64,000 bases of DNA from an uncultured Gammaproteobacteria bacterium (GCA_963771665.1 CAVYUK010000004.1:63971-127970); one strand, 5' to 3'. Numbered from the stretch's first letter, positions 10,515-42,279 are shown. Made by a program: numbers and translations. The notes: generated by a model from the letters alone, not told the origin.

Positions 10515-11354
10515 TCAGATCTCGACGTGCCCCTCGAAGGATCGTTGCGCCGGACCGGTGAGCCAGACCGACTGTCCGGGCCCGCCCCAGTGTACGCTCA
10601 ACGTGCCGCCCGTCGCATGCACATTGACGTCGGTGCCGAGCAATCCGAGGTGGTGCCCCACCACGGCCGCGGCGCACGCGCCGGTGCCGCAGGCCAGAGT
10701 TTCGCCGACTCCGCGCTCATAGACCCGCAGTCGAATGTGCGAAGTGTCGATCACTTCCATGAAACCCACGTTCACCTGCCGCGGGAAATGTACATTGGAT
10801 TGCAGCGCGCGGCCGATGCGCTCGACCGGGGCCGTCTCGACGGAGTCGACATTCAGCACCGCGTGCGGATTGCCGATCGAGACCGCGCCGATCTCGATGA
10901 TCTCGCCGCCGGCGGTCAGCCGATAGCTGGCGTTCTGCGCCGGCACATCGAACGGCAGGCTTCGGGGATCGAAATTCGGCACGCCGAGATCGACCGATAC
11001 CAGATCGCCGGCCAGCACGCGGGCGCGCATGGGGCCCGCCGTGCAGTCGATCGAGACCGTGTCGCCGCCGTGGCCGTTGCGTCCGTTCCGTCGATGCACC
11101 AGCGCTGCTACGCAGCGGGCGCCGTTGCCGCATTGCTCGACTTCGACACCGTCGGCGTTGAAGACGCGATAGAACGCGTCAGTGCCTTGCCTCTTCGGCG
11201 GCTGCAGTACCAGCGCCTGGTCGAAGCCGATGCCGGTGTGACGGTTGGAAAGCGCGCGCCATTGGTCGCCGCTTGGCATGGGCGCATCGGCGGGCAGATC
11301 GAAGATGATGAAGTCGTTGCCAAGGCCGTGCATCTTGGTGAACTCGATCCGCAT
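10515..11354 (-). CDS. dapF: diaminopimelate epimerase
   Basis: MHGLGNDFIIFD. Both catalytic Cys motifs are present (EQCGNGARC; ACGTGACAA). Confidence 0.95.
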   Translation of the reverse strand: MRIEFTKMHGLGNDFIIFDLPADAPMPSGDQWRALSNRHTGIGFDQALVLQPPKRQGTDAFYRVFNADGVEVEQCGNGARCVAALVHRRNGRNGHGGDTVSIDCTAGPMRARVLAGDLVSVDLGVPNFDPRSLPFDVPAQNASYRLTAGGEIIEIGAVSIGNPHAVLNVDSVETAPVERIGRALQSNVHFPRQVNVGFMEVIDTSHIRLRVYERGVGETLACGTGACAAAVVGHHLGLLGTDVNVHATGGTLSVHWGGPGQSVWLTGPAQRSFEGHVEI

Positions 11355-11375
11355 GCGCAGAGCATACCCGATCGC

Positions 11376-11843
11376 TTAGCTGCCGCAGGCTGTGTCCATC
11401 GCCTGATGCAGATTCACCCGCTGTTGCTCGGCTTCCTCGTCGGTGAGGTATTGGCGTTCGCCGTCGGTGCCGGATTTATAGATCCGGCGCGCCGCGATGG
11501 CCGCCTCGTAATCGGATTTGGCCTTGGTGCACTGGTCGGCACGAGTCTGTTCGACATCCTGCTGCACGGCCTTTTCCGCGGCCTCTTTCGCCAGCGGGTC
11601 CTGTGGCGGGGCCTTGGCGGCCGTCGGGGAAGCGGTTGCCGCGCTGCTGGATTTGGCGGCAGCAGCGGTGCTGTTGAAGGCGATGCCGCCGCCGCCGCGC
11701 TGTACGTGCACGAGTTCTGCGCCGGGCGTCGGTGTGTCGCTGTAATGCACCTGGCCTTGCGCGTCGACCGAACGGTAGACGTCGGCCTGCGCCGCAGTGA
11801 TGGCCAGCGACATAAGCAGGGTAGCAGCGGCGACTCGGCGCAT
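11376..11843 (-). CDS. DUF4124-like periplasmic protein
   Basis: Signal peptide followed by DVYRSVDAQGQVHYSDTP, then a low-complexity Ala-rich linker. Confidence 0.7.
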   Translation of the reverse strand: MRRVAAATLLMSLAITAAQADVYRSVDAQGQVHYSDTPTPGAELVHVQRGGGGIAFNSTAAAAKSSSAATASPTAAKAPPQDPLAKEAAEKAVQQDVEQTRADQCTKAKSDYEAAIAARRIYKSGTDGERQYLTDEEAEQQRVNLHQAMDTACGS

Positions 11844-11918
11844 CGAAGGGGCCTCCAGGGAGTCCTAGTATCCGGCCATACTTTAGCTCCGTGGGGTGAC
11901 CCGCGTCACATTCGGGGG

Positions 11919-13330
<1,412 letters not shown>

Positions 13331-15769: not shown

Positions 15770-18058
15770 ATGAGGGAGTCATCGACAGAGGGCCGTGAAG
15801 CTGTGCCCAGCGCACGCTCGCTGGTTCCGTGCCTCTGGGCTTTGCTTGCCACAACGGCGCTCGCGTCCGGGGCCGCTCCAGAGAAGTGGCGACAAAGCCT
15901 CACCGAGGGATCGCAGGACCGGCAACTCGGTGCTCTGGACGATTCCATCGCCGCACTCGAGCTTGCGGTGCGGGATGCACCCGATACGCCCAGCCGGGTG
16001 CTATCCCAGACGCAACTCGGTGTCAGCCTATTGCAGACAGGCCGACTCGCGCAGGCCGATGCTGCGCTCCAGTCCGCCTATCGGGACGCGGACGAGGACA
16101 GTCGCTACACGGTCGCGCTGGCGATCGGCAATCTGGCGGTTCGATCCCACGACTATCCGCGCGCAAGCCGTTATTACCAGCAGGCGGCCGAATCGGCGCC
16201 GGCGGATGCCACCGGCAACGACACCCGCGCGATCGCAGAGCTTGCGCTTACCGGCCTGCTGCAGCCCATTGAGCGGCTTGCGAAGCTGGATGCGCTGCTG
16301 CCGCGGATCGAGGCCATGGACAGGCCGTCCTATCGCGCCAGAGCTTTGTTTGGTTTGGGCCGGCAGGCCAGCGAGGCGCTGGTGCTGGCGCGGCTCACGC
16401 ATTCGCCGGAGTCCGATCTGGCGCTGCGCCTGAGCTATCGCGGACTGGCCGCTTCGAAGCAATGGGCCGATGAAAATGAGGATCTGCCGCTGGCGGTCGA
16501 TGCGGCCGATGCACTCGCGCAGCTGTACGAGTCGCAAGGGCGTTATGCGGAGGCTGCGCAGATCAACCTCAATGCCATCCGCGCGGCCACGGGCCTGAAG
16601 CACGGCCAAGCGGAGCTGCCGCTGGCGCGATTGGATTGGCGTGCGGCGCGCCTGGCACGGCAGCGCGGTGACGCAGCAGCGGCACTCGCAGGCTATCTGC
16701 ACGCGGCCGATTATCTGCGGGCCATCGCGCCCGACCTGCCCATCGAGGATGCGCAGGGCAAGTCGACTTACCAGTCATTGCAGCGACCGATTTTCCTGGG
16801 TCTCGCCGATGAGTTGCTGCAGGACGTGGATACGCTGCGCCCCGAGCTCAAGCAACAACGGTTGCTGGCAGCGTTGAATCTGATCGAGCAGGCGCACCAG
16901 GCCGAGCTGCAGGATTATCTGGGCGATCGCTGCTCGGTGGATTCGGTCGGGAAACCCACTGGGGCCGCAGCGGGCGAAACTGTGGCACCCGGCATCGCGA
17001 TCATTTATCCGCTGGTGCTGAAGGAGCGGCTGGAAGTGGTGGTGCGGACCAGCCAGGGTCTGCGGCATCACACAGCGCCGGTGTCGGCGGCGACGCTGGC
17101 AAAAGAGATTCAGAATTTTCGCTCGGCTCTTCTCGACCCAGGTTCGTCCGATTACGTGTCGGCGTCCAGCCGCCTGGACGAATGGCTGATAGCGCCGTTT
17201 GCCTCCATGCTGGAACAGGCCCATGTGCAGCAACTCATCATCGTGCCGGACGGATATCTGCGACTGATTCCGTTCGCGGCCCTGCACGACGGCAATGAGT
17301 TTCTCGCGCAGCGCTACTGGGTTTCCAGCGTGACCGGGCTGACGATGACGGAACAGCGGACCGAGCGGCGTGCACGGCCGGTCTCGCTGTTCGCGGGTCT
17401 TTCGACGCCCGGGCCGGTCGTGGACCGACTCGCAGCCATGGGATTTGCCGGCCGCGCGGCCCCTGAGGCCGGCGCGGTATCCGCGACACGCGCATTGAAT
17501 CTGCGCAGCCAGCTGGCGCTGCCTGGAGTTCAGAGCGAGATCCAGGATCTGGTGCCGCTGTCGCGCAGCGTCTGGATGCTGAACGATCAGTTCACCGTCA
17601 GCCACTTTGCGCAGGAGGTGCAGAGCGGCCGGTATAGCGTCGTGCACATCGCCTCGCACAGCTTCTTCGGCAGCAATGCCGGCGACTCCTTTCTGCTGGC
17701 TTACGACAATGTGATCCGTATCGATCAATTGCAGCAGCTGCTCGCCAGCAATGAGGTGCGGCAGGCCGGCATCGATCTGCTGACTCTTTCGGCCTGCGAC
17801 ACTGCGACCGGCGATGATCGGGCACCGCTCGGATTTGCCGGCGCCGCCATCAAGGCGCATGCGCGCAGCGTGCTGGGTTCCCTCTGGGCCGTCAGCGACA
17901 CCGCCACACAACAATTCATGGAGGTCTTCTATAAAGGCCTTCCCCAGCACGGCAAGGCCGAGGCTTTCACCGAGGCACAGCGGGTGTTGATGGGTTCGAC
18001 AACGTTTTCGCACCCTTACTACTGGGCGCCGTTCGTTCTGACCGGTGACTGGAATTGA
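15770..18058 (+). CDS. secreted TPR + CHAT (caspase-like) domain protein
   Basis: ORF 15671..18058. A signal-like peptide starts at ATG 15770 (SLVPCLWALLATTALASG). Helical repeats in the N-terminal half. C-terminal CHAT blocks VVHIASHSFFG (His codon 17657-17659) and LLTLSACDTATG (Cys codon 17795-17797). Confidence 0.85.
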   Translation: MRESSTEGREAVPSARSLVPCLWALLATTALASGAAPEKWRQSLTEGSQDRQLGALDDSIAALELAVRDAPDTPSRVLSQTQLGVSLLQTGRLAQADAALQSAYRDADEDSRYTVALAIGNLAVRSHDYPRASRYYQQAAESAPADATGNDTRAIAELALTGLLQPIERLAKLDALLPRIEAMDRPSYRARALFGLGRQASEALVLARLTHSPESDLALRLSYRGLAASKQWADENEDLPLAVDAADALAQLYESQGRYAEAAQINLNAIRAATGLKHGQAELPLARLDWRAARLARQRGDAAAALAGYLHAADYLRAIAPDLPIEDAQGKSTYQSLQRPIFLGLADELLQDVDTLRPELKQQRLLAALNLIEQAHQAELQDYLGDRCSVDSVGKPTGAAAGETVAPGIAIIYPLVLKERLEVVVRTSQGLRHHTAPVSAATLAKEIQNFRSALLDPGSSDYVSASSRLDEWLIAPFASMLEQAHVQQLIIVPDGYLRLIPFAALHDGNEFLAQRYWVSSVTGLTMTEQRTERRARPVSLFAGLSTPGPVVDRLAAMGFAGRAAPEAGAVSATRALNLRSQLALPGVQSEIQDLVPLSRSVWMLNDQFTVSHFAQEVQSGRYSVVHIASHSFFGSNAGDSFLLAYDNVIRIDQLQQLLASNEVRQAGIDLLTLSACDTATGDDRAPLGFAGAAIKAHARSVLGSLWAVSDTATQQFMEVFYKGLPQHGKAEAFTEAQRVLMGSTTFSHPYYWAPFVLTGDWN

Positions 18059-18061
18059 TGC

Positions 18062-21000
18062 GTGACGGTGGCTGAGAATAACAAGAGGGCCTGGGCGGCC
18101 GGCGGCGCGGGGCTCTGCCTCACGTTGGTATCGGCCGCTGCAAATTCCGCGGGCCCCGCGGGTATCAAGCTCGATGGAACACTTGGCGGTACGGCCGCCG
18201 CATTGACTGGACCGAACTACAACATCACGCAGAGTCTCGGCCGGCTCTCGGGCGGGAATCTCTTCTTCAGTTTCCAGTACTTCAATGTCGCAACCGGCGA
18301 GACCGCTCTGTTTACGACTTCGAGCGCCGGTATCGCCAATGTCATCAGTCGGGTCACGGGCGGCTACGCCTCGAGCATCGATGGCACCATCAGGCTGCAG
18401 GCGGCATCGGGGAGGCCGGACTTCTTTCTGATCAATCCCAGCGGAGTGACCTTCACCAGCAACGCGGTGGTCGACGTACCGGCGGCCTTCTATGTCAGCA
18501 CGGCCGATTACCTGAAGTTTCCCGACGGCAATTTCTATGTCGATCCCGGCAAGGTGAGCACCCTGTCGGCGGCGGCGCCGGAAGCCTTCGGCTTCCTCGG
18601 CGGCGCGCGTGCGCCGGTCGCTGTGCTGGGCGGCCGCCTCACCGGCGGCAGTAACGGAGTCGGGGATTTCGACATCACAGCCGGCGATGTGACCATCGAT
18701 GGCGGCGGTGCACAGAATGGGATCTACGAATCGAGCGGCGAGATACGTATCGCGGCGGTGGGTAATGCAGCCGCCGAGGTACCGCTGTCGGGGCCATATT
18801 CCGCGAGCGATGGCAGCGTCACCATCCGCAATGGCGGGCTGCTGTGGTCCGAAGGGGTCGGTGCCACGCCCGGCGCAGGCGTATCGATCAGCGCCGGCAG
18901 CCTGCTTATCGATGGCGCGGGAGCACCCAACTTCACCGGGGTAGTTGCCGGGGATCTTGGCGCGCCGGGACCGATCGACGTGACGATTGCCAACGACGCG
19001 CAGATCGTGAACGGCGGGCTGATTTACTCGGCCAATTCCTTTGCCGGGGCGGCGGCCAAGGTCTCGCTGAGCGCTGGCACACTGACCATCGATGGCGCCA
19101 ATGCTGCGGGTACCACAGGCATCGAATCAGACGCATTGGGAAATGGCGCCGGCGCCGATGTGCAGGTCAGCGTGAAGGGTCAAGCCACGATCATGGGCAC
19201 TGGCGGCATCTTTACGACCACCGCAGGCCAGGGCAATGCGGGCGATATGGTGCTGTCAGCCGGGGCGTTATCGATCAATGCCACGGAGCCTACTCAGAAC
19301 CCGGGACTCCAGTCCTTTACCACCGGTACCGGCAATGCCGGCGCCATAACGGTCGATGTTTCGGGCAACGTCTCGTTGACCGGGAGCGCGGGAATCCTTT
19401 CCTATACGGAGGCATCGGGCAATGCGGGAGCGGTCAGTGTACAGGCGCTCGGCACGCTGTCGATGGGCGGAGGTTCCCAGATTTTTTCCAATAATTACTC
19501 CGGCTCCGGCAATGGCGGCGATGTCCTCGTGACTGGCTCGGCATTGACCATCGACGCGCAGGCCAGCAGTGGCACGACCTGCATCTGCACCACCACCGAG
19601 ACAGCCGGCAGCGGCGGGTCCGTCACTGTGCGCGTCGGTTCGCTGTCGATTGAGGGGGCGAACAGCAATCTTGGATTCACGGGCATCGAGACCGTGGCCG
19701 ACGGTGCGGGCAGCGGCGGAGCGCTCCGGCTCGAGGTAGTCGGCCAGGCCACGATCTCCAATGGCGGGTTTATCTACAGCGGGACCAGTGGTCAGGGCAA
19801 CGCGGGCAACATCGCGGTGTCCGCCGGTAATCTGCTGTTGCAGGATGTCGGCAACGGCAATATCAACACTGGCATCGCCAGCAATACCTTCGGCGCAGGC
19901 GCGTCCGGGTCGGTGCAGATCAACAGCGGTGCGCTGATGCTGAGTGCACCGGCGGGCACCAATCCGCTCGCCACTCCGGTGGGTATTTCCAGCAGCCCCG
20001 AGTCAGGCTCGAGCGGCAATGGCGGCAATGTCACAGTCGATATCGCCGGCCCGGTATCGCTCAACGGTCCCACGGTGATCTCCACGTCCACCTATTCCAC
20101 GGGGGCTGCCGGGCAGGTCTCAATCGATGCACAGGGGGCAGTGTCCCTGCTCGGTGGTGGCCTGATCAGCTCCGAGTCCTTCGCCGCCGGCGCAGGCAAT
20201 GCCGGCAGCGTCACGCTGAATGCCGCGGCGCTGGATATAGAAGGGCGCGGCTCTGCCTTCGAAACCGGCGTGGCTGCCGATACCAGCGGCACGGGCAGCG
20301 CCGGTGACGTCACTGTTCACGTCGGCACGCTGTCGATCGATGGTGGTAGCGGTACAGGCGAGGCCGACATCGAGGCGTTTACCAATGGCAGCGGGGCGGG
20401 CGGCCAGATTCAGATCATGGTGGCGCGCAACGCCACCATCGCCGACGGCGGCCTGATCTATACCAACGCCTACGCGCAGGGGAATGCGGGCAGCATCACT
20501 CTGAGTGCCGGTAACCTCACGATAGACGCGCATCCCAATGGCAGCAACTACGCCACTGGCATTTCAGCCGATACCTATGGCCCCGGCAATGCCGGATCGA
20601 TTCAGATCAGCTCCGGATCGCTGACTGTCAGCAGCTATTCGGGCAGCCTTCTGCCGATTGTCATTTCCAGCGACGCCCTCGCGGGATCCACCGGCAATGC
20701 CGGCGCCGTCAATATCTTTGTCGATGGCGATATGCTTTTCACCGGCAACTCCTCGGTGAGCTCCAATTCGTATTCATCCGGCAATGCGGGCAGGGTAAAC
20801 GTCAACGCGGCCGGCAGCATTTCGTTGCTCGACGGCGCGTACATCTCATCGATCGCCAATGCGGCCACCGGCAATGCCGGCGACATCAGTGTCGCGGCAT
20901 CGGCACTCAATATTGAAGGAACCAGCACGGGCCTCACGGGCATCAGCACCGAATCCTACGGCACCGGCAACTCCGGATCGATTCAGGTGCACGTGGGCTC

Positions 21001-22123
21001 GCTGTTGATTGAGGGCGGTACCGCAGCGGCCATCGACAGCGAGGTGTTTCCGGAAGGGACTGGCGGTGTGGGCGGCGCGGCCGGTTCCATCATCGTCGAC
21101 GTTGCCGGCAGCGCCATTCTGCAGAACGGTTCGAAGATATCGACGACTTCCTACGGTTCCGGACCTGCCGGTGACGTGAGCATCAGCGCCGGGACGCTGC
21201 TGCTGGGCGGCGGCAGCGTTCGATCCATCATCTCCAGCGGTGCGCGTGCGGGCTCCGGTGGTCAACCCGGAAACGTTTCGATCGATGCCGGCACGCTCGA
21301 GGTGCTGTCCAATGGATCCATCAACATTGCCGACAACGCGACGATCGCCAACCCGGGCAGCGTCAAACCGACGCAGATCAGCATTACGGCCGGACAGATT
21401 GATCTGAACGATGGTCTGATCACGGCCGCCTCCACCGGCAATGTGGCGGCCAGCGCCATCGACATCAGTTACTCCTCGGCACTGCGCATGGATCCGAGCA
21501 CCATCTCGACTTCATCGCAGGATGGCAACGGCGGTCCCATTACCATCACCGGCCAGGGTCCGCTGCTGATGGGACATTCGAGCATCACGACCTCCGTACT
21601 CGGCGCCACCAACGGCAACGGTGGCGACATCAGCATCGATGTCCCCGTGATCGCGCTGGACACCGGCTTCATACAGGCCAATACGTTTGCGCCGGTCGCC
21701 TCGGGTGGCACCATCCGGATCGACGCGCAGGCCCTGGTGCCCAGCGAGCAATCCTTCATCCTGGGCGGCAACGCGCTGTCCTTCGACTCGGCCGCGCAGG
21801 GGCTCAACGTCGTGCAGGCGGCCGCTCCGGATGGCTTGAGCGGGACACTCAGCGTGACGGTGCCCACATTGGATCTGGGCAATGCACTGCTGGGGCTGAC
21901 GGGCCGGCCCTCGACGCCCGCCGCGCTGGGGCGAAGCGCCTGCGGGTTCGACCGCGGCAGTGCTCTGGTGGTGACAGGTCGTGGCGGCGTCGCTGCTACG
22001 GCATACGATCCAATGTGGATTGACCCGATCAGCCCAGTCCGCCCGGCCCGCAGCTCTGACCGCAAGGTGTCGGCCATGCCCGGCAGCGGCATCGAGGCGG
22101 CAAGGTCTGCCCCCTGCCGATGA
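18062..22123 (+). CDS. two-partner-secretion exoprotein (TpsA) with filamentous-haemagglutinin N-terminal TPS domain and beta-helix repeats
   Basis: TPS blocks GNLFFSFQYFNV, ANVISRVTGG and DFFLINPSGVTF, then about 20 degenerate G-x-G-N-A-G-x-[IV]-x-[IV] repeats. GTG start 3 nt after the CHAT gene. Confidence 0.9.
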   Translation: MTVAENNKRAWAAGGAGLCLTLVSAAANSAGPAGIKLDGTLGGTAAALTGPNYNITQSLGRLSGGNLFFSFQYFNVATGETALFTTSSAGIANVISRVTGGYASSIDGTIRLQAASGRPDFFLINPSGVTFTSNAVVDVPAAFYVSTADYLKFPDGNFYVDPGKVSTLSAAAPEAFGFLGGARAPVAVLGGRLTGGSNGVGDFDITAGDVTIDGGGAQNGIYESSGEIRIAAVGNAAAEVPLSGPYSASDGSVTIRNGGLLWSEGVGATPGAGVSISAGSLLIDGAGAPNFTGVVAGDLGAPGPIDVTIANDAQIVNGGLIYSANSFAGAAAKVSLSAGTLTIDGANAAGTTGIESDALGNGAGADVQVSVKGQATIMGTGGIFTTTAGQGNAGDMVLSAGALSINATEPTQNPGLQSFTTGTGNAGAITVDVSGNVSLTGSAGILSYTEASGNAGAVSVQALGTLSMGGGSQIFSNNYSGSGNGGDVLVTGSALTIDAQASSGTTCICTTTETAGSGGSVTVRVGSLSIEGANSNLGFTGIETVADGAGSGGALRLEVVGQATISNGGFIYSGTSGQGNAGNIAVSAGNLLLQDVGNGNINTGIASNTFGAGASGSVQINSGALMLSAPAGTNPLATPVGISSSPESGSSGNGGNVTVDIAGPVSLNGPTVISTSTYSTGAAGQVSIDAQGAVSLLGGGLISSESFAAGAGNAGSVTLNAAALDIEGRGSAFETGVAADTSGTGSAGDVTVHVGTLSIDGGSGTGEADIEAFTNGSGAGGQIQIMVARNATIADGGLIYTNAYAQGNAGSITLSAGNLTIDAHPNGSNYATGISADTYGPGNAGSIQISSGSLTVSSYSGSLLPIVISSDALAGSTGNAGAVNIFVDGDMLFTGNSSVSSNSYSSGNAGRVNVNAAGSISLLDGAYISSIANAATGNAGDISVAASALNIEGTSTGLTGISTESYGTGNSGSIQVHVGSLLIEGGTAAAIDSEVFPEGTGGVGGAAGSIIVDVAGSAILQNGSKISTTSYGSGPAGDVSISAGTLLLGGGSVRSIISSGARAGSGGQPGNVSIDAGTLEVLSNGSINIADNATIANPGSVKPTQISITAGQIDLNDGLITAASTGNVAASAIDISYSSALRMDPSTISTSSQDGNGGPITITGQGPLLMGHSSITTSVLGATNGNGGDISIDVPVIALDTGFIQANTFAPVASGGTIRIDAQALVPSEQSFILGGNALSFDSAAQGLNVVQAAAPDGLSGTLSVTVPTLDLGNALLGLTGRPSTPAALGRSACGFDRGSALVVTGRGGVAATAYDPMWIDPISPVRPARSSDRKVSAMPGSGIEAARSAPCR

Positions 22124-22131
22124 TCGCCTGA

Positions 22132-23793
22132 ATGATCGGTGCGCGCACGACCGGGCGCCGTGGCTGGCTGTCAGCGCTATTCATCTGCAATCTCGCCTGT
22201 GCGGCCGCTTTTAGCGCACAGGCTGAGCGCCCTGCGGGCAGCGCGCCATTTGAGCTGCCACCGGTGCCAGAGACCAGGCAAGGTACGGATTCGATCAGTG
22301 GGCAGGTACAAGTTGATCGCATTGCGTTTCGCGGTAATCGTGTGATCCACACCGATGCACTGGCGGCAGTGGCCGCGCCCTTTCTGGGTCGAGAGCTCAG
22401 CGTCGCCGATGTGGAGACGCTGCGGACGGCGCTGACGCACCGTTATACCGATCATGGCTATATCAACTCGGGCGTGGTGCTCGACCCGGAGTCTCCCTAT
22501 CACGACGGCCTGCTGAGTTTTCTGGTTATCGAAGGTCGAATCCACCAGGTGCGCGTTCACGGCCAGAAGCGCCTGCGCGCGGCCTACATAGCGAATCGGA
22601 TGCGACAGAGCGAGGAGGAGACGCTGGATGTCAACCTGCTGCGCGAACGCTTCCAGCGTCTGCTGGATGATCCGCTGTTCGTGCGCGTGAATTCGCGTAT
22701 CGAACCCGGCCCGGACCTCGGCGAGGCCATTCTCGATGTCGATGTCGTCCGCGCGCGTCCCTATACATTGGCGTTTGCGCTCAACAACTATCGTCCGCCT
22801 TCCATCGGCGAGAAAGCATATGACCTGAGCGGGGAAGTACGGAATCTGACCGGCTTCGGCGATGTGGTGAATGCGGATTTCACCGGGCCGCTGAACTTCA
22901 CAGGCGGGGTTGGCTACAGCTTCGGCTGGCAGCTTTCGCTCAATCGCTATGGCACGGCTGTGGCGATTTCGGCGCAGCGAGCGGAGACTGTTGTGACCGA
23001 GGAGCCGCTGTCAGTGCTGGACATTCGCAGCACCATCGAGCGCCAGGAACTGAAACTGACCCAACCGCTGTGGACCTCACTGAGCCAGCAGTTCACCCTT
23101 GGCGCCAGCATTGCGCACGAAGAGAATTCGACCGTGCTGGATGGCACACCGTTCTCATTCCTTCCCGGCTCCAACAACGGCGTTACCCGGGCGATCACCG
23201 AGCGGGTGATTCCGGACTACAGCTTCCGCTCGCCGCAACAGTACTGGGGCGTCCGCGTAACGCTGTTACACGCGTACCTGCTCGATTATCCATCGGGCCC
23301 GGTGTCGTATGCTCTTCCCAATCAGCAGTATTTCCTCTGGACCGGCCAGGTACACAATCTCTGGGAGATTCCAGGCGTGCCGTTCGAATTGGAATCGCGC
23401 GCGACTTTGCAGCGCACCAGTGCGCGCATTTCCGATCTGCACACGCTGGCACTCGGCGGCATCGGCTCGGTACGCGGATTCCGGGAAAATGAGTTGCTGG
23501 CTTCCAATGTCGACAATCTGAATTTCGACTTCCGGTGGCTGGCCTCGCCGGCCGCCCGCGGCGCGGTTCCGGGTCTGACGCTGGGGACCTTTTTTGACTG
23601 GGCGGAGGGCCACGATGTCGGACAGCCTACCGATACGCTTTCGTCGGTCGGCCTGACGACGAGACTGCGCTGGCCGCATCTCCAGGTGGATTTTGCCTAC
23701 GGGTTGCGGCTGATTCATCCGGGCTTTACCGAGCAGGAGCATGGCAGCTGGCAGGACCATGGGATTCATGCGCAGATTCAGACGGTGCTCTGA
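22132..23793 (+). CDS. ShlB/FhaC/HecB-type TpsB outer-membrane transporter
   Basis: Signal peptide, a POTRA-like region (IAFRGNRVIHTDAL..., YTDHGYINSGV), a beta-barrel body and C-terminal GSVRGF. Starts 8 nt after tpsA. Confidence 0.9.
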   Translation: MIGARTTGRRGWLSALFICNLACAAAFSAQAERPAGSAPFELPPVPETRQGTDSISGQVQVDRIAFRGNRVIHTDALAAVAAPFLGRELSVADVETLRTALTHRYTDHGYINSGVVLDPESPYHDGLLSFLVIEGRIHQVRVHGQKRLRAAYIANRMRQSEEETLDVNLLRERFQRLLDDPLFVRVNSRIEPGPDLGEAILDVDVVRARPYTLAFALNNYRPPSIGEKAYDLSGEVRNLTGFGDVVNADFTGPLNFTGGVGYSFGWQLSLNRYGTAVAISAQRAETVVTEEPLSVLDIRSTIERQELKLTQPLWTSLSQQFTLGASIAHEENSTVLDGTPFSFLPGSNNGVTRAITERVIPDYSFRSPQQYWGVRVTLLHAYLLDYPSGPVSYALPNQQYFLWTGQVHNLWEIPGVPFELESRATLQRTSARISDLHTLALGGIGSVRGFRENELLASNVDNLNFDFRWLASPAARGAVPGLTLGTFFDWAEGHDVGQPTDTLSSVGLTTRLRWPHLQVDFAYGLRLIHPGFTEQEHGSWQDHGIHAQIQTVL

Positions 23794-23813
23794 TTTAACG
23801 GGGGAGAACGGTA

Positions 23814-24728
23814 ATGAAGATTTTTGTCGCAGTGGCGCTTCTGGGCCCGGTACTCAATGCGCTGGCGGCTACGCAGCCGGATTGTGCATCCGGTGAGCGC
23901 TATCTTGCCGCGGCACACGAGAAGGCCTCGGCCTCGGAGTTCAGCGACGCAGCTGACCTGGCGCAGCGCGCGGTGGAGGCCTGTCCGAGTTATGAGGGCT
24001 ATGAATCACTGGGTGAAGCTCAGGCGCAGTCCCTGAACCGTGCCGATCATGCGCACGCCGTCGACGCGTTCGTGTCGGCCCACGAACTTGCCTCGACCGA
24101 CCCGGAACGTGCCCGCACACTGTATGAATATGCGCGACTGCTGAACCTGGATGGTGATCCACAGAATGCGTACCCGCTCATCAAGGATGCCAGGGCGCTC
24201 GAGCCCGACAACGCCGACATCACCGCCTTATCGGGCAAGATCGAGCAGCGCATCAATAATCCCACCAAGGAACAGATCGTGCGGGGCCTGTGGGATTCCA
24301 TGTACAAGCCATTACGGGTGGCTTCGGCAAAGCCGCAGCACCCTGCAAGCGGAGCATCCCAGGTCGAGGCGGTCCACAATGACGCGCCGTCGGTCAATAT
24401 CCCGATCAACTTCGAAGTCGGTACCACCACCGTGGACGAGCGAACCCGCGCCAATATCGCGATACTCGCCGGCGCGCTCTCGGATCCCGCCAATGCCCAG
24501 CAACATTTCATCTTTGTGGGGCACGCGGATGTCCGCGGGGTCGAACCGAACAATGTCACGCTGTCGAAGCGTCGCGCCGAAGCTCTCAGTCAAGCCGTGG
24601 TGCTGCTGCAACCTTCGCTACAGGGACGCATCGAGGCCATTGGACGTGGCTCCTCCGAGCCGATTGATCAGGGCCACGACGAGAATGCTTATCGCGCCAA
24701 TCGTAGGCTGCAGGTGCTGCTCAAATAA
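23814..24728 (+). CDS. TPR + OmpA-C-like (peptidoglycan-binding) protein
   Basis: Signal peptide and an N-terminal helical repeat. C-terminal OmpA block FVGHADVRGVEPNNVTLSKRRAEAL...NRRLQVLL. Confidence 0.85.
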   Translation: MKIFVAVALLGPVLNALAATQPDCASGERYLAAAHEKASASEFSDAADLAQRAVEACPSYEGYESLGEAQAQSLNRADHAHAVDAFVSAHELASTDPERARTLYEYARLLNLDGDPQNAYPLIKDARALEPDNADITALSGKIEQRINNPTKEQIVRGLWDSMYKPLRVASAKPQHPASGASQVEAVHNDAPSVNIPINFEVGTTTVDERTRANIAILAGALSDPANAQQHFIFVGHADVRGVEPNNVTLSKRRAEALSQAVVLLQPSLQGRIEAIGRGSSEPIDQGHDENAYRANRRLQVLLK

Positions 24729-24745: not shown

Positions 24746-26380
24746 TCAATGGGGGCATCCGTCCCGGCGCGCGTATTCGCCGGCGACCTCGGCCCAGCCC
24801 TGCCTGGCGGCGAGTGCCAGGCTGCGACAGTAGTCCTGGTAAAGCGGATCCGCGGTTGATACAGCCCGACCGGCAGCATTGATCGATTCGCGAAACGATG
24901 CAGCCAGGACGAAGCTTGCCATCGCGTCGCCCGACTTGGATGCGGTGAGCAGTGATTGCGTCACCTGCGAGCGGCTGATGTGTCCCGACTGGACGCTGCC
25001 GATCAGCAGCGACGCCACTGCCGCCCTCGCATCGCCGAAGCGGCGGAGCATTTCGGTGTTCTTCGAAAGCGCCTCGAATGCCGCGGCCTGACCGGTCTGC
25101 TGCAGCCGCTTTGCCTGCAATACCGTGGCAAGCGTCGGCTCGGTGACGCTGGACAGATCCTGCGGAGTGAGCGCCGCCGCATCGGCCAGTTTCAGAAATC
25201 GCTGTTCCTCATCAAAGCTGGGCAGACGCGTGGCCTCGAGCACGAAACTGACCGGCTCCGGATCGGTGCCGGACCCCACGGTCAGGTGCCGGACTTCGCC
25301 GTAATAGCCGCCTGCCACGGCCACGACATCGTGACCGCCGGCGCCCAGCTCAACCGCCTGCCCGGAGAACGGTCTGGCATCGACGAAAATTGTTGCGCCG
25401 GATGGCAGGCGCGCAATGGGGACGGCGACTGTTGCGGTCGCGGGAGCGGATGCTGCCGGGGAATGCCGCAGCAGCCCGTTACGCCACGCCACCGCCCCCA
25501 GCACGACCGCAATCGCGGCGGCGGAGGCAATCACGGCGACCACTCCCGGGCGCATGTGCCCGCCAGCCGTTGCGCGACGTTCGTGGGCCTGTAGTAGGTC
25601 GCGACACTCCGCCGCGGAAGGACGAGCTGCAGGCTCGGAAGCCAGGCAGCGAGCCACCAATTCCCCCAGGTCCCTGCCGAGAACGCGCACGATGGGGCGT
25701 GCATCGCTGTGGTTCCGAATGGGGTGAATCCTCGGAAGTTCTCCAGTCAGCATCTCGTGCAAAACCAGACCGAAGCTATAGATGTCGATTCGATCGGTGA
25801 TGGCTTCGCCCAGGGCCTGTTCAGGGGCCATATAGCGCACGTTGCCTACCACCAGTCCGACGGCGGTCTGCGATCCCTGTGTCGCCTGTGATTTGGCGAC
25901 GCCGAAGTCGGAAAGTACCGGGGCGCCGTTTTCGCGCAACAGAACGTTGCGGGGTTTGAAGTCGCGATGAATCACGTCACGTGCATGCGCGTACGCCAGG
26001 GCGTCAGCCAGCTTTGAGGCAAGCGCGACCGAGGTCGCTGGGGCCAACCTGGTCGAGGTCATCAGATCGAACAGTGCACCGCCGGCCACGTATTCCATGA
26101 CGATGTACTGCTTGCCATCGACCCAGCCGCTGGTGTGCACCGTTACGATGTTCGGATGCTGGAAAGCGGCGACGGTCAGCGCCTCCCGCGTGAAACGCTT
26201 CTGGTAGTCGGGATCGTCGGTGAATTCGGGATGAATGACCTTGATGGCAACCTGTCGCTGCAGCGTCAGGTCTTCCGCAAGGTAGACGGCGCCCATGCCG
26301 CCACGCTCGATCAGTTGCAGCACACGATATCCGGGAATGGCCTCAATCGAGGCAGCGCCAACTATATTCGTGGCAGTCAC
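24746..26380 (-). CDS. transmembrane Ser/Thr protein kinase with PEGA-like and Sel1-like extracytoplasmic region
   Basis: Hanks motifs GGMGAVYLA, VAIK, HRDFKPRNVL, SDFG and MAPE. One TM helix (VVAVIASAAAIAVVLGAVAW). PEGA-like stretch GATIFVDARPF..GGHDVVAV. Confidence 0.9.
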   Translation of the reverse strand: MTATNIVGAASIEAIPGYRVLQLIERGGMGAVYLAEDLTLQRQVAIKVIHPEFTDDPDYQKRFTREALTVAAFQHPNIVTVHTSGWVDGKQYIVMEYVAGGALFDLMTSTRLAPATSVALASKLADALAYAHARDVIHRDFKPRNVLLRENGAPVLSDFGVAKSQATQGSQTAVGLVVGNVRYMAPEQALGEAITDRIDIYSFGLVLHEMLTGELPRIHPIRNHSDARPIVRVLGRDLGELVARCLASEPAARPSAAECRDLLQAHERRATAGGHMRPGVVAVIASAAAIAVVLGAVAWRNGLLRHSPAASAPATATVAVPIARLPSGATIFVDARPFSGQAVELGAGGHDVVAVAGGYYGEVRHLTVGSGTDPEPVSFVLEATRLPSFDEEQRFLKLADAAALTPQDLSSVTEPTLATVLQAKRLQQTGQAAAFEALSKNTEMLRRFGDARAAVASLLIGSVQSGHISRSQVTQSLLTASKSGDAMASFVLAASFRESINAAGRAVSTADPLYQDYCRSLALAARQGWAEVAGEYARRDGCPH

Positions 26381-26461: not shown

Positions 26462-26986
26462 TTACTGGGCCAGCGATACCATGTAGTCGACGCCCTGCTT
26501 GACCAGATCGTCCGGCAGATCGGTGCGGCCGCCCTTGGCGGGCATGGCGCCGGTCTTGCCGTTGTATCCCTGCAGCGCATGTTGGTAGAGCGTCGGCTTG
26601 CCCTGCGCGATGCGCGGTCCCCACGCAGCCTTGTCACCGGCCTTGGGAGCACCCGCGATACCGGCGCCGTGGCAGACGCTGCAAACCGCCTCGAACAGCG
26701 ACTTGCCGTCCTTGGGCACAGCCATCGCGGTCGTGGCCGCCGCCCCGGCAGGGGCCTTGATGGCGAGCGCCGAGTTGTCCTGGCCGGCAACGGCTTCCTG
26801 GCCCGCGGGCGCGACCCGCTCGAGCACGCTGTTGACGTAGGCCGGGTCGGCGTAGACGTCTCGGGATTCTGTGCGCGCGGCTACCGTCCGGGCAAGGAAC
26901 AGCAGTCCGAGGGCCACTGCCACCAGGATGCCGATGACGAGACTGAAGACGTTGACAAACTGCGAGTCGTTTTTGTTCACGGGCAC
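26462..26986 (-). CDS. membrane-anchored class I c-type cytochrome (c5-like)
   Basis: N-terminal TM anchor and a single CSVCHGAGIAGAPK haem motif, then MPAKGG. Confidence 0.75.
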   Translation of the reverse strand: MPVNKNDSQFVNVFSLVIGILVAVALGLLFLARTVAARTESRDVYADPAYVNSVLERVAPAGQEAVAGQDNSALAIKAPAGAAATTAMAVPKDGKSLFEAVCSVCHGAGIAGAPKAGDKAAWGPRIAQGKPTLYQHALQGYNGKTGAMPAKGGRTDLPDDLVKQGVDYMVSLAQ

Positions 26987-27044: not shown

Positions 27045-27731
27045 CTAGAGCGCGTGGCGAAAGGTCAGGTTGATTCGGCAGCGTCCCAGCGCGGGATGCT
27101 GGCCCTCGGCCAGTGGCTGCACACCATGGAACGCCAGGCGCTGCGCACCGCCCCAGACCACGACATCGGCGTGGAACAGCGGCACGCGCTGCACGGGGTC
27201 GTCGCGCAGCATGCCGCCGAACAGGAACACGGCCGGTAATCCGAGCGAGACGGATACCACGGGGCAGGACATATCGCGCTCGTTGCGATCCTGGTGCAGC
27301 GATAAGCGTGCGCCGGGCTCGTAGCGATTCACCAGGCAGGCATCGGGAGCGAAATGCGCAAAGCCCGCTCGAGCCGCGGCCCTTGCGGCCAGCTCACTCC
27401 AGCGCGCCGGCATCGAGGGCCACGGCCGGCCGCTGCAGGGATCGAGGCTCTGGTAGCGATAGCCGCCGCGATCGGACACCCAGCCTGCACGCCCGCAGTT
27501 GGTCATGGCGACGGACATGCGCTGGCCGCCCGGGGTCTGCATGTGGCGCCAGGGATTGGTGGCGATCAGTGCCTGGACGTCCGCGCACAGCATGGCCGCG
27601 TCGGCAGTTGCAAACCCCGGCAGCACGACAGCCTCCGGCCCGATGCGCTCGAAGGCTTCGCGCGGCAGCAGGTCGCGCGTTGCCAGATCGTGGGCCGGCG
27701 CCCGGGTGGCACTAGAACCGCTCATAAGCAT
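27045..27731 (-). CDS. alkB: alpha-ketoglutarate-dependent DNA dioxygenase AlkB
   Basis: LSLHQDRNE (HxD), RLAFHGV and RINLTFR. The ATG overlaps the upstream stop (TAATG). Confidence 0.9.
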   Translation of the reverse strand: MLMSGSSATRAPAHDLATRDLLPREAFERIGPEAVVLPGFATADAAMLCADVQALIATNPWRHMQTPGGQRMSVAMTNCGRAGWVSDRGGYRYQSLDPCSGRPWPSMPARWSELAARAAARAGFAHFAPDACLVNRYEPGARLSLHQDRNERDMSCPVVSVSLGLPAVFLFGGMLRDDPVQRVPLFHADVVVWGGAQRLAFHGVQPLAEGQHPALGRCRINLTFRHAL

Positions 27732-28456
27732 TACGTTGCATCGTGAAAAATCACTCCCAGCGTATATCGCATGCCCAGCCGGAGACGACTCACCCCATGG
27801 CGCATAGCGACTCGATAAATTCCGCGCGTGCCCTGCATCGGCCGGTGATTCACGGCGAAGATCACCGCGTCCCCCCGGCGCAGCGGCACGACCTCGGCGC
27901 GCGACTGCGCGCGCGGCCGCTGCTCGGTCAGCACGAACTCGCCGCCCTCGAAATCCTTTCCAGGATCAGACAGAAGCACGGTCGCCTGCAGTGGAAACAC
28001 ATGCTCGCCGTAGAGGTCCTGATGCAGGCAGTTGTAGTCGCCGGCTGCGTAACGCAGCAGCAGCGGAGTCGGCTTGCTCTGGCCTGCCGCGTGGCACTCG
28101 TCGAGATACTCCGCCAGCGTCGCGGGGTAACGCGCCGTGGATTTGAGCAAGCCGCTCCAGCGATTGGCGATCGGCGCCAGCGACTCATAGAGCCGCGTGC
28201 GCAGCGCCTGAACCGGTGCCGGCAGAGGGTAGCGGAAGTACTGGTACTCCCCGCGACCGAAGCCGTGACGCTGCATGATCACGCGACTGCGAAACGCCTC
28301 TGCGCTGGCGTAGCCATCGATGAGTTGCGCGCATTGTTCATCGTTCAGTAGTGCCGGGATCACGGCGGCGCCGCGCGCGTCGAGCTCCGCAGCGAACTCC
28401 GCCTCTGGCGCAGATGCCAACGGCGCGGTGACCGATTCGGCGAGCACGGCATTCAC
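27731..28456 (-). CDS. uncharacterised 2OG-Fe(II) oxygenase encoded inside the ada operon
   Basis: HxD in NCLHQDLYG, distal His in VAMRHGVS. GTG start overlaps the ada stop (GTGA). Confidence 0.75.
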   Translation of the reverse strand: MNAVLAESVTAPLASAPEAEFAAELDARGAAVIPALLNDEQCAQLIDGYASAEAFRSRVIMQRHGFGRGEYQYFRYPLPAPVQALRTRLYESLAPIANRWSGLLKSTARYPATLAEYLDECHAAGQSKPTPLLLRYAAGDYNCLHQDLYGEHVFPLQATVLLSDPGKDFEGGEFVLTEQRPRAQSRAEVVPLRRGDAVIFAVNHRPMQGTRGIYRVAMRHGVSRLRLGMRYTLGVIFHDAT

Positions 28457-29508
28457 GAGGCGCGGCCCTCGCGCTCGAGCAGCGCGCGCTTGCGTGCGAC
28501 TCCCCAGTGATAGCCGGAGATCGCGCCGTCGCTGCGAATCACACGATGGCAGGGCACTGCCACGGCAACCGGGTTGGCGGCGATCGCGGCACCCACCGCG
28601 CGGCTGGCCTTGGGAATCCCCAGCCGGCGTGCGATCTCGGCATAGCTGACAGTGGTGCCCGCAGGAACGGTTCGCAGTGCCTGCCAGACCCGCAGCTGAA
28701 AGCTCGTGCCGCGCAGATCCAGCGGCAGATCAAGACCGGCGGCCGGCGCTTCGACGAAGCCAATGACGGTGGCCACCGTGCGCTCGAAGTCGCCGTCGCC
28801 GCCGCGCAGTTGCGCGCGCGGAAAGCGATCCTGCAGGTCGCGCAGCAGCGCCTCGGGTTCATCACCCAGCGTGATTGCGCAGACGCCTCGATCGGTGGCG
28901 GCCACCAGGATGGAGCCGAGCGAGCATTGCGCGACCGCAAACCGGATCTGCTCGCCATTGCCGCCGCTGCGATAGGCACTGGGCACCATGCCGAGCGCGG
29001 CATCGCTCTGCGCATAGAAACGCGCGTTGGAGTTGAAGCCCGCGTCGTACATGGCGGCCGTCACGCTGCCACTCTCAGGCAGCTTGTCGCGCACGCGCTG
29101 TGCGCGCAGTCCCGCGGCGTATCCTTTGGGAGTAAGTCCGGTGACGCGCTTGAACAGCCGGTGGAAATAAAACCGGCTTAAGCGCGCGCCCTGCGCGAGT
29201 TCGGCAAGATTGGGCATCTGCTCGGCCTGCGCGATGCGGCGGCACGCTGCGGCAATCAGCTCGGCCTGGCGCTGTGACGGCGCGGTCGAATCGGGGTGGC
29301 AGCGTTTGCAGGCGCGAAAGCCGGCCCGCTCCGCGGCCGAAGGCTCGGAGAAGAAGCGTACGTTCTCACGCCGAGGCATGCGTGCCGCGCACGAGGGACG
29401 GCAATACACGCCGGTGGTGCGGACGGCGTAAAAGAATTCCCCATCGGCGCTGGGGCTGCGCTGCTGGATGGCGTTCCAGCGATCATCATCGGTGGTCGGG
29501 TGGTTCAT
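28453..29508 (-). CDS. ada: bifunctional Ada: methylphosphotriester/O6-methylguanine methyltransferase and AraC-type regulator
   Basis: ORF 28453..29598. AGGAG lies 6 nt before ATG 29508. Zn-Cys N-domain FFYAVRTTGVYCRPSCAAR, AraC HTH, C-terminal VPCHRVI active site. Confidence 0.9.
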   Translation of the reverse strand: MNHPTTDDDRWNAIQQRSPSADGEFFYAVRTTGVYCRPSCAARMPRRENVRFFSEPSAAERAGFRACKRCHPDSTAPSQRQAELIAAACRRIAQAEQMPNLAELAQGARLSRFYFHRLFKRVTGLTPKGYAAGLRAQRVRDKLPESGSVTAAMYDAGFNSNARFYAQSDAALGMVPSAYRSGGNGEQIRFAVAQCSLGSILVAATDRGVCAITLGDEPEALLRDLQDRFPRAQLRGGDGDFERTVATVIGFVEAPAAGLDLPLDLRGTSFQLRVWQALRTVPAGTTVSYAEIARRLGIPKASRAVGAAIAANPVAVAVPCHRVIRSDGAISGYHWGVARKRALLEREGRAS

Positions 29509-29818
29509 GGTGGACTCCTGGGCAGCCGCGCTGCGTCTGGGGCGCAGATTCGGCGAGCGGCGCCTGGCGCGCACTCCAGCTGTTGCGGTTGAATTCAAGC
29601 TGCTCAGGGTGTCTTACAGATGCGTTTCCGATGTCTGGGAGGCGCGCATTTTATAGGTTTTGATCGCTGCCGGAACGCTGCAATACTGCGGCGCTGCCGC
29701 AGACGGAATCGCAAGTGATTCCAATCAGTTGGATGATGGTCGGCAGATGAGGCCGGAGAAAGTCATGAACTCCGATGCATATGGCCGGGCCCGAATAATT
29801 GCGCCTGGCGTTGGCTTT

Positions 29819-30871: not shown

Positions 30872-31789
30872 TTACGTCTGGCGTCCGAATCGATAGGAGT
30901 TGGCCGGGCGATATAACAGCGGGTTCCCGGCGTCGAGATGCCACATCTCATCACGCATTCGTTGGCGCTCTGCGTTCGGGATGGCGCCGAAGCCTCTGTG
31001 CGGAGTGCATGTGAGTTCGCCGAAGTAAACCTCGCCCTCGACCGTATAAAGGTCGACCCGGACGAAATCAAAATCCGCGGAGAGGTCTCTGGCCACCTGC
31101 ACCATGACTTCAAAATTCGCCGGCTTCAGATGTGGCGCCAGCTCCTGCTCAGGAATATCGCATTCGAGAACTGTCCAGTCCTTCCGGAAGGCGGCGCTCT
31201 TCCCAGCCGGCGTCATAATCGAGAAATTGTAGTCAAACCCGCCGCGCGCGTTATAGCAAAAGAAGCTGTAATCCCAAGGCACATCACCGTGCGGCCCGCT
31301 CAACAGCTTTTCGATCACGATTTTCGGAGGGATGAAACTGTAGTGCCTTTCTCCGGAGATCCAACCGAAACGCCGTTTGCAGAGCTTGTTGAATCGCCGA
31401 ATTGTCTTATCGATATCGAGCGTGCGCTTGTCGTAGACGATCTGGTGCCACTTGCAGCCATGATTGGCTTTGATAATAAATTGATCAGGCAGGTTATCGA
31501 ATGTTGATCTGTCCAATCGGTCGTAAACGCCAAGCAGCGGAATGAGGTGTTTGTCGCCGACCTTGGCGGCGACGTAGTTCCTGACTCGATACTTGTCTGC
31601 GACCAGGGCGTAGAAGGCGTGATTGCCGTACAGCTTCCTGAATTGCACCTTCTCCTGGTACGTCTTTGGATTCTCGAAATCACCTGCGTAGCCGAGGCCC
31701 CTCATGAACTGCAAGCTGATCAGCTGCCGCTGCGCATTGAAGATTAGCCATTCGCTCAGTCGCCTTAGCATTTGAGTCGCCTCTTGCAA
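30872..31789 (-). CDS. TupA-like ATP-grasp amidoligase
   Basis: Blocks FIIKANHGCKWH and FVRVDLYTVEGEVYFGELTCTPHRG. Lower GC than the flanks. Its stop abuts the GST stop with zero spacer. Confidence 0.7.
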   Translation of the reverse strand: MQEATQMLRRLSEWLIFNAQRQLISLQFMRGLGYAGDFENPKTYQEKVQFRKLYGNHAFYALVADKYRVRNYVAAKVGDKHLIPLLGVYDRLDRSTFDNLPDQFIIKANHGCKWHQIVYDKRTLDIDKTIRRFNKLCKRRFGWISGERHYSFIPPKIVIEKLLSGPHGDVPWDYSFFCYNARGGFDYNFSIMTPAGKSAAFRKDWTVLECDIPEQELAPHLKPANFEVMVQVARDLSADFDFVRVDLYTVEGEVYFGELTCTPHRGFGAIPNAERQRMRDEMWHLDAGNPLLYRPANSYRFGRQT

Positions 31790-32156
31790 GTCATTGTAGT
31801 TTGCCGAAGGCGGGCATCAAGATGCGCTGCCGACCGTGCCTTGCCTCGTTATGTTCAACGGCTGACCTCACAAGACAAAAACGATGTCAGCCAGGTCGGG
31901 AGTATGACGACGAGACTCATTATGTAAACCGCGGCGGAGCACCGAGTGATTGGAACCAGAGCGAGCTTGTCCACGCCGCAGTCGGTTACGCAGATGCCGC
32001 GGCATTCGCATCATGAGTCCGACAGTCCAGGGATCTCCACACCGGTCCGGCAATGATTCTTGTGAGACAATTACGAACTCAAAGAACCGGAACTTCGCTT
32101 CGGGTGGTTCCCTCGCCCCGGGAAGTTTCGCGGGCAAATATAAATTAGCGATCACC

Positions 32157-33837: not shown

Positions 33838-42279
<8,442 letters not shown>

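Follow-up and report, generated by a model that had tools for sequence, protein, structure and literature searches.

The 64,000-nucleotide stretch of an uncultured Gammaproteobacteria bacterium analyzed here (GCA_963771665.1, CAVYUK010000004.1:63971-127970; hereafter the window) encodes a two-partner secretion (TPS) pair, TpsA and TpsB, in one operon with a caspase-like TPR-CHAT protein and a TPR-OmpA protein. The initial annotation described four same-strand genes separated by 3, 8, and 20 nt. This layout was borne out by plus-strand open reading frames (ORFs) at 15671/15770-18058, 18062-22123, 22132-23793, and 23814-24728, with tpsB starting 8 nt past tpsA, and by the Pfam and NCBIfam identities of the products. 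A signal-peptide-like N-terminus can be read from the translations of all four. The first gene matches CHAT (PF12770, E = 3e-53, aa 466-760), and both sequence contexts previously assigned to its His/Cys dyad, HIASHSFFG and LSACDTATG, are found in the translation. TpsA opens with a TPS domain (PF05860, E = 1e-27, aa 34-244; TIGR01901 in NCBIfam) and has an NPSG motif at aa 125. The probable start of the CHAT gene is GTG 15803, which follows a GAGGG Shine-Dalgarno sequence located 10 nt upstream and agrees with a 751-aa product in a public collection; an alternative start at ATG 15770 would give 762 aa, and CHAT residues are numbered according to this longer form. Promoter and terminator scans of the operon region returned background level only.

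We surveyed the genomic neighborhoods of related CHAT proteins using one genome per GTDB species, which yielded 80 loci with relatives at 28-38% identity. Hidden Markov models (HMMs) were built from the neighboring genes and run on all six-frame ORFs, and frequencies were taken from the 42 loci in which the CHAT gene has 8 kb or more on both sides. A TPS-domain gene was present in 36 of these 42 full-flank loci, DUF928 in 26, TpsB in 24, and a CHASE2 protein in 21. The CHAT loci span at least eight phyla (Beta-, Gamma-, and Alphaproteobacteria, Nitrospirota, Verrucomicrobiota, Desulfobacterota, Cyanobacteria, Zixibacteria, and others), and their gene orders are shuffled, with CHAT-A-B, B-CHAT-A, A-B-CHAT, and divergent arrangements all represented. 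For the reverse census, which began from the TpsA C-terminus, the cross-phylum tail alignment (A2) proved too divergent to scan loci with; a proteobacterial subset (A3) was used instead, and the result thus covers the proteobacterial clade only. This search fetched 78 metagenome loci, 24 of them at least 12 kb long. Among those 24, CHAT was encoded in 22 and TpsB in 23, and both loci without CHAT are cut off upstream. Loci of close orthologs retain the order CHAT-TpsA(-TpsA)-TpsB-TPR-OmpA behind different upstream flanks: comM in the window, an amino acid permease in L081, and PPK2 in L084. That linkage is kept despite varied gene order points to selection maintaining it, not to synteny by descent. 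The initial annotation had proposed that the CHAT protein is functionally coupled to the TPS pair, a claim that would fail if the CHAT gene were not conserved beside such genes. The censuses instead found conserved linkage from both directions, and the cyanobacteria and proteobacteria, for which the initial annotation noted a recurrent CHAT, TPS, and ShlB-type triad, are both among the census loci. The CHAT protein is very probably a dedicated functional partner of the TPS system.

A domain fusion points the same way. P0385 (L168:139-4995; 1,618 aa) combines a TPS domain, a beta-helix, a C-SQGQKSEFTITGRGGLPPNP tail, and TPR-CHAT. As a single polypeptide, it places tail and protease next to each other in one chain and in the same compartment, in the manner of a Rosetta-stone fusion. 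Its tail pattern reads C...FTITGRGGLPP, and it has neither the terminal Cys nor a CHAT signal peptide. The gene occurs on one 7.6-kb contig seen in two samples, where it adjoins a convergent Peptidase_C14 (caspase-like) gene. Another apparent CHAT-TPS fusion, at L009, was rejected as an assembly artefact in which a frameshifted CHAT C-terminus runs into the tpsA start.

The TPR-CHAT protein has a typical signal peptide with predicted cleavage at PSARSLVPCLWALLATTALA/SG. Its TPR portion gave weak Pfam matches and forms an all-helical repeat superhelix in an AlphaFold2 model built from the family alignment, in which the superhelix is joined to an alpha/beta CHAT domain (predicted local distance difference test [pLDDT], 86; predicted template modeling score, 0.82). 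A low-confidence, disordered junction loop (aa 392-402) follows Cys388. When the model was compared with the PDB using Foldseek, the best match was Csx29, the TPR-CHAT protein of Craspase (7y84_C, E = 3e-12); the periplasmic TPR-CHAT of DdvA (8rw5, E = 5e-11) and separase (5u1s, E = 1.5e-9) were also retrieved. The family alignment comprises 119 members, 45 of which were collected via TpsA and are therefore unbiased for CHAT features. H626, H630, S674, and A675 are invariant across all 119, and 118 of them have C676. E373 and the noncatalytic C388 (nt 16931-16933) are likewise invariant (119/119), and C388 and C676 are the sole cysteines of the mature window protein. C388 could act as a redox latch with C676, form a mixed disulfide with a TpsA cysteine, or serve another role. 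Most family members also begin with a hydrophobic, signal-like segment. Given the conserved dyad and the signal-like N-termini, the enzyme is very probably active and extracytoplasmic. Approximately 46 CHAT orthologs at 45-82% identity, nearly all metagenomic, were present in the public collection. A TPR-CHAT profile searched against 1.84 billion representatives (clusters at 50% identity) returned 21,000 matches at E <= 1e-30, a number that includes CHAT proteins possibly not TPS-linked; the best 150 align over nearly the full length.

The putative partner, TpsA, had no relative among solved structures in a sequence search. A homology search with its C-terminus returned short metagenomic fragments only, without domain architectures, and these supplied the alignment for AlphaFold2. 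In the resulting model of the last 254 aa (35 aligned sequences), the beta-helix is confident to approximately aa 1270, and the tail that follows has a pLDDT below 50. CHAT-adjacent TpsAs across phyla share the pattern ...NVIQAAAPxGxSG...PxLDL..., an invariant Cys, a further 8-12 residues, and then S-S-F/L-x-V-x-G-R-G-G-L/V-P. Within alignment A2, the Cys is invariant, the Gly corresponding to window G1306 reaches at least 90% conservation, and it is mostly followed by Arg or Lys. Among the ORFs of all fetched loci, the strict motif is confined to those resembling TpsA. Because the Cys and the motif lie in the low-pLDDT tail, the element is, as modeled, a conserved linear motif within a flexible region; such elements are usually recognized by a partner protein. 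The cysteine pattern of TpsA is similarly constrained. Exactly two cysteines occur in 80 of 117 relatives (mature length, 650-2200 aa), one 50-110 aa from the end and the other in the last 2-10 aa; extra cysteines in TpsA relatives occur as close pairs. In the window protein, the cysteines are C1294 and C1352, plus a CxC pair at C507/C509. Two or three tandem TpsA paralogs are encoded in many loci (L001, L012, L058, L077, L081, and L134), and the window has one; tandem paralogs have the tail in common and differ in beta-helix length (~800-2200 aa).

The initial annotation had alternatively cast the CHAT protein as a toxin-activating partner, an idea that lost ground on inspection of TpsA: we found no recognizable toxin domain (no Pfam match beyond TPS), no VENN motif, and no immunity gene. 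On the same features, assignment to the contact-dependent CdiBAI systems was rejected, as the tail is a short conserved motif rather than a variable toxin; tpsA is followed by tpsB and the ompA-like gene, with no cdi-type immunity gene.

Table 1. Coordinates of the operon, its functional elements, and the adjoining kinase gene (positions in the window)
Feature	Position (nt)	Strand	Basis
Exported TPR-CHAT protein, 751 aa (or 762)	15803..18058	+	Pfam, AlphaFold2, Foldseek
Sec-type signal peptide of the CHAT protein, VPSARSLVPCLWALLATTALAS	15803..15868	+	Translation; Shine-Dalgarno-like GAGGG upstream
TPR-like helical repeat superhelix, aa ~39-384	15884..16921	+	AlphaFold2 (17 helices)
Junction motif ELQDYLGDRC, last residue Cys388	16904..16933	+	Family alignment
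CHAT caspase-fold domain	17165..18049	+	Pfam, aa 466-760
Catalytic His630	17657-17659	+	Family alignment
Catalytic Cys676	17795-17797	+	Family alignment
TpsA, 1353 aa, Gly/Ala/Ser-rich beta-helical exoprotein	18062..22123	+	Pfam, NCBIfam
Flexible TpsA tail, aa ~1278-1353, bounded by Cys1294 and Cys1352	21893..22120	+	AlphaFold2
Tail motif C1294-GFDRGSALVVT-G-R1307-G-G	21941..21988	+	Cross-phylum alignment A2
TpsB outer-membrane transporter: signal peptide, two POTRA domains, ShlB barrel	22132..23793	+	Pfam
Periplasmic TPR and OmpA-like peptidoglycan-binding protein	23814..24728	+	Pfam OmpA and TPR_14
Transmembrane Ser/Thr kinase, probable fifth module member in the window clade	24746..26380	-	Pfam Pkinase, E = 4e-43

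The remaining operon products are more conventional in domain content. TpsB matches POTRA_2, POTRA, and ShlB in Pfam and has a VRGF motif at aa 447; its nearest solved relative is CdiB (6wim, E = 9e-13). The TPR-OmpA protein begins with a signal peptide and lacks both a lipobox and a barrel. Its OmpA domain (PF00691, E = 1e-11) occupies aa 200-297 and contains the peptidoglycan-binding motifs GHAD (aa 236) and LSKRRA (aa 250), and its TPR_14 match scores 25.6 bits against a cutoff of 23.5. Orthologs lie after TpsB in L081-85, L087-95, and L165-167, and are divergent from CHAT in L049, L098, and L105. More distant homologs (48-52% identity) are encoded directly 3' of TpsB in three of four sampled contigs. 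A 59%-identical homolog was found in a Steroidobacteraceae metagenome-assembled genome, and other relatives come from peat or bog metagenomes. The proposal that the OmpA-like protein anchors the complex to the cell wall is plausible in light of the GHAD and LSKRRA motifs and its position after TpsB in three of the four distant contigs; as a lineage-specific gene, however, it is no universal component of such systems.

The unit probably reaches past 24728 to include the convergent Ser/Thr kinase gene, since the genes beyond the kinase differ between loci. As read from the sequence, the kinase has a cytoplasmic catalytic domain (aa 1-270), a transmembrane helix (~278-297), and a periplasmic portion of ~245 aa. 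A kinase with the same periplasmic domain adjoins the module in L084/85, L087, L088, L091, L093, L095, and L098, and in L098 it is co-directional and directly follows TpsB. A convergent kinase is also encoded in L165. Elsewhere, L094 encodes a kinase with a different periplasmic domain between two TpsA genes (L094:10460-12589), and the module-associated Ser/Thr kinase of L167 carries a TonB_C domain (L167:12512-14458). That these two kinases carry other extracytoplasmic domains suggests an interchangeable sensor partner. An HMM search of locus ORFs identified no DUF928 or CHASE2 gene in the window or its close relatives. In other phyla, Pfam-confirmed DUF928 (PF06051) and CHASE2 proteins occupy the same neighborhood, the latter fused to Guanylate_cyc, HisKA/HATPase, or AAA_35. 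Examples of DUF928 or CHASE2 beside CHAT-TPS modules include L008, L011, L013, L027, L053, L056, and L058. DUF928 proteins have a conserved Y.PP.RGAP..R.GGG.RG segment after the signal peptide, which resembles the GRGG of TpsA.

Taken at the level of sequence, the locus has the hallmarks of a type Vb system: a TPS domain follows the signal peptide of TpsA, and the adjacent Omp85-type TpsB has two POTRA domains and a ShlB barrel. TpsB-dependent export of TpsA is predicted. Peptidase activity is likewise predicted for the CHAT protein, which has the conserved His/Cys dyad of clan CD and a separase- and craspase-type TPR-CHAT fold according to AlphaFold2 and Foldseek. The OmpA_C domain and the Asp- and Arg-containing motifs of the fourth product (GHAD and LSKRRA) are those of an OmpA-like peptidoglycan binder. 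The reading that we prefer, in which we place moderate confidence, is a type Vb (two-partner) secretion system served by dedicated accessory proteins of the envelope, in which CHAT acts as a periplasmic protease acting on the TpsA tail. TpsB would export the ~1300-aa beta-helical TpsA fiber. The last ~75 residues of TpsA would remain periplasmic as a flexible tail, closed by a disulfide between Cys1294 and Cys1352, and would thereby tether the fiber in its transporter. The Sec-exported TPR-CHAT protein would be an active caspase-fold protease that recognizes this tail, using the TPR superhelix as a docking platform. It may cut within or next to SxLxVxG-R-GG, most likely after Arg1307, such that the fiber is matured, released, or turned over. 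A preference for a basic P1 residue is found in several clan CD enzymes and would fit cleavage at this position. The TPR-OmpA protein may tie one of the partners to peptidoglycan, and the transmembrane Ser/Thr kinase may couple the state of the system to cytoplasmic signaling, a part that CHASE2 cyclases or kinases and DUF928 would play elsewhere. The recurrence of membrane sensors (the kinase here, CHASE2 proteins elsewhere), considered alongside DdvA, suggests by analogy that the proteolytic event is coupled to signaling. A role for CHAT in maturation, as the initial annotation had proposed, or in release is consistent with the signal peptides, the invariant dyad, and the conserved tail motif of TpsA. 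We infer that CHAT cleaves TpsA as its substrate, and likewise where it would cut, that the tail is periplasmic and disulfide-closed, and what the physiological outcome would be.

Characterized systems provide several points of comparison for this arrangement. CdrA, a TpsA adhesin of Pseudomonas aeruginosa, is held by a periplasmic C-terminal tail and is released when LapG cuts that tail (PMC5422565). The proposed arrangement resembles CdrA/CdrB-LapG/LapD in that a periplasmic cysteine protease would act on a TpsA tail with a membrane signaling protein in control. However, LapG is not encoded in the cdrAB operon, whereas TPR-CHAT is operon-encoded here. LapG is a transglutaminase-like protease unrelated to CHAT. 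Control of CdrA also runs inside-out via cyclic di-GMP and LapD, in contrast to the sensors at CHAT loci, which have enzymatic outputs (kinase or cyclase), and the GRGG motif between two cysteines differs from the CdrA tail motif. No LapG-family protease or LapD receptor domain was detected among the scanned genes in or beside the operon, which may resemble the Lap system in function but does not belong to it. HMW1 and HxuA have a C-terminal anchor, disordered in the HxuA crystal structure, in which a disulfide locks TpsA in TpsB on the periplasmic side (PMC5422565). In concept, the Cys pair bracketing a flexible tail in the window TpsA may be a comparable anchor; unlike HMW1 and HxuA, the window-type Cys loop spans 45-105 residues and contains a conserved linear motif. 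We know of no dedicated protease for HMW1 or HxuA. The proposed maturation of a TpsA by a dedicated protease recalls Bordetella FhaB/FhaC and SphB1, although SphB1, a subtilisin autotransporter of the cell surface, is encoded away from the fha locus and CHAT lies in the operon here.

On the protease side, DdvA, an anti-sigma factor of Myxococcus xanthus for which signal-induced proteolysis has been proposed, has the same TPR-CHAT fold and is the sole characterized extracytoplasmic TPR-CHAT protein. It is membrane-anchored, has a cytoplasmic zinc anti-sigma domain, lacks three active-site helices, and is linked to a sigma factor of the extracytoplasmic function (ECF) type, whereas the window protein would be soluble after removal of its signal peptide and is TPS-linked. 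A DdvA-type anti-sigma role was rejected on two counts, the presence of only a cleavable signal peptide before the TPR region and the absence of an adjacent ECF sigma gene. Csx29 and separase, the best structural matches by virtue of a TPR superhelix and a CHAT His/Cys dyad, are only ~10-13% identical. Both are cytoplasmic, with Csx29 bound to gRAMP and CRISPR RNA and separase regulated by securin. A type III-E Craspase was rejected in view of the signal peptide, the TPS neighbors, the missing CRISPR context, and a PADLOC result limited to a weak BovA match. A defense-system reading was rejected as well, because PADLOC matched only a generic kinase, MotB, and the same weak BovA.

Several observations weigh against the protease-tail reading. 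Contact between CHAT and TpsA is itself inferred, and TpsB or some other partner might be what recognizes the tail motif. With the motif situated between the cysteine pair, one cut alone would leave the fiber attached for as long as the disulfide holds. The periplasm is oxidizing, and the catalytic Cys676 and the invariant Cys388 would have to stay reduced there or may form a latch. The basic residue after G1306 is not universal, with GH, GY, and other variants occurring, and approximately 13 of the 117 TpsAs have a single Cys and a short tail. Several full-flank CHAT loci (L043, L064, L065, and L074) have no TPS gene within 10 kb. Lastly, the P0385 fusion comes from just one contig and may be an error.

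Given the recurrence of sensors, one alternative reverses the emphasis and makes an extracytoplasmic proteolytic signaling cascade the primary function. The fiber would serve as an antenna; prompted by, for example, contact, damage, or phage, CHAT would cut the tail or a partner such as DUF928, and the kinase here, or CHASE2 cyclases or histidine kinases elsewhere, would detect the product or complex through their periplasmic domains. This alternative overlaps with the reading we prefer. Sensors with enzymatic cytoplasmic outputs do recur, with CHASE2 proteins bearing Guanylate_cyc, HisKA, or AAA_35 in 21 of the 42 loci and transmembrane Ser/Thr kinases recurring in the window clade, where they sit inside the operon in L094 and L098. 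Precedents include DdvA, a periplasmic TPR-CHAT protein proposed to signal via proteolysis, and a CHASE2-metacaspase fusion described in the literature for Trichodesmium; the GGGxRG segment of DUF928 also resembles the GRGG motif of TpsA. That likeness is short and could be chance, however, and the sensors occur in only half of the loci and vary in type. The window kinase is convergent rather than operonic, and both the ligand and the direction of signaling are purely hypothetical. We regard a primarily signaling role as possible but on the unlikely side. A broader version, in which CHAT-TpsA-TpsB forms a widespread envelope caspase-like signaling pathway together with DUF928 and CHASE2 proteins or, in the window, with TPR-OmpA and the Ser/Thr kinase, is rather unlikely; the fiber would report an external event, periplasmic CHAT would translate it into tail cleavage, and the product would be the long-sought input for CHASE2-type or related sensors controlling cyclic AMP or cyclic GMP, phosphorelay, or Ser/Thr phosphorylation.

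Other roles for the CHAT protein dispense with signaling. As a periplasmic chaperone and quality-control factor, it would hold unfolded TpsA through its TPR region and degrade stalled or mis-secreted TpsA through CHAT, with no specific cut. TPR domains are generic peptide-binding scaffolds, a single CHAT gene may accompany one to three TpsA paralogs, TpsAs cross the periplasm unfolded, and FhaB is trimmed by periplasmic proteases (PMC5422565). Such duties normally fall to housekeeping proteases such as DegP, though, and the conserved tail motif and Cys pair indicate a specific site rather than bulk degradation, which makes this role clearly unlikely. The same motif, followed by a poorly conserved tail of variable length, is reminiscent of a sorting signal and its leaving group, and by analogy CHAT might be a sortase-like transpeptidase that cuts at GR/GG and transfers the fiber to peptidoglycan, TPR-OmpA, or lipid. 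Clan CD includes transpeptidases and ligases, namely GPI (glycosylphosphatidylinositol) transamidase, legumain ligases, and PorU. A peptidoglycan-binding partner in the window clade, the invariant extra Cys of the enzyme, and the invariant Cys beside the motif would suit this chemistry. We nevertheless find it quite improbable: the OmpA partner is absent from most phyla and the acceptor is hypothetical, and we know of no transpeptidase precedent for CHAT domains. The CHAT protein could also be cargo, an effector displayed or delivered outside by the TPS system, and export of the TPS-to-TPR-CHAT chain of P0385 as a passenger is conceivable in principle. Such fusions are rare (one in the top 150 representatives), the window CHAT bears a Sec signal of its own but lacks a TPS domain, and TpsB channels accept unfolded TPS-domain substrates; a cargo role is therefore very improbable. 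Mere adjacency by inherited synteny, with no functional coupling, is barely credible given linkage that holds in at least eight phyla, with rearranged orders and different flanks, and in both census directions.

According to the standard review of TPS systems, maturation-protease genes lie outside TPS operons (PMC5422565); in contrast, the window locus and the sampled loci from at least eight phyla encode a candidate caspase-fold maturation protease in or beside the TPS genes. A full-text literature search, the coverage of which leaves out most subscription journals, found no paper joining CHAT with two-partner secretion, hemagglutinin, DUF928, or CHASE2. What appears to be new, judged from gene content and alignments, is a TPS system that has a caspase-like protease encoded in its operon, a tail motif specific to the family, and envelope sensors linked to it. 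If the protease-tail relation is true, extracytoplasmic CHAT proteases would gain a defined substrate, and the strong conservation of the TpsA tail would be explained. It would also provide a concrete candidate peptide, ...SALVVTGR/GGVAATAYDP... (tail peptide GSALVVTGRGGVAATAYDP), and a handle on orphan DUF928, the CHASE2 sensor, and the periplasmic input of the Ser/Thr kinase.

The operon is flanked by ordinary chromosomal genes, with dapF, DUF484, xerC, hslU, amtB, and comM upstream and a cytochrome c gene, alkB, ada, an NRPS (nonribosomal peptide synthetase) gene, and polA downstream. Farther upstream, an ECF-type sigma factor (Sigma70_r2/r4_2) with a C-terminal DUF6596 extension is encoded at 609-1814. 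Two long ORFs, 2833-4569 (578 aa) and 10527-12713 (728 aa), have no Pfam match; the latter, which lies on the strand opposite to dapF and amtB and overlaps both, is unlikely to be a gene. An adaptive-response cluster on the minus strand (27045-29598) comprises ada, an 'Oxygenase-NA' 2-oxoglutarate oxygenase gene, and alkB, all in one direction; the ada product combines Ada_Zn_binding, an AraC helix-turn-helix, and a methyltransferase domain. The cytochrome c gene (26462-26986) lies between this cluster and the kinase. A probable secondary-metabolite cluster at 30872-45150 encodes a TupA-like ATP-grasp protein, two alpha/beta hydrolases, the NRPS, a KAS III-like enzyme, and an MBOAT acyltransferase. 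The GC content falls to 0.56-0.57 at 30-34 kb, and the NRPS (2813 aa) contains three adenylation, two condensation, and three carrier domains.

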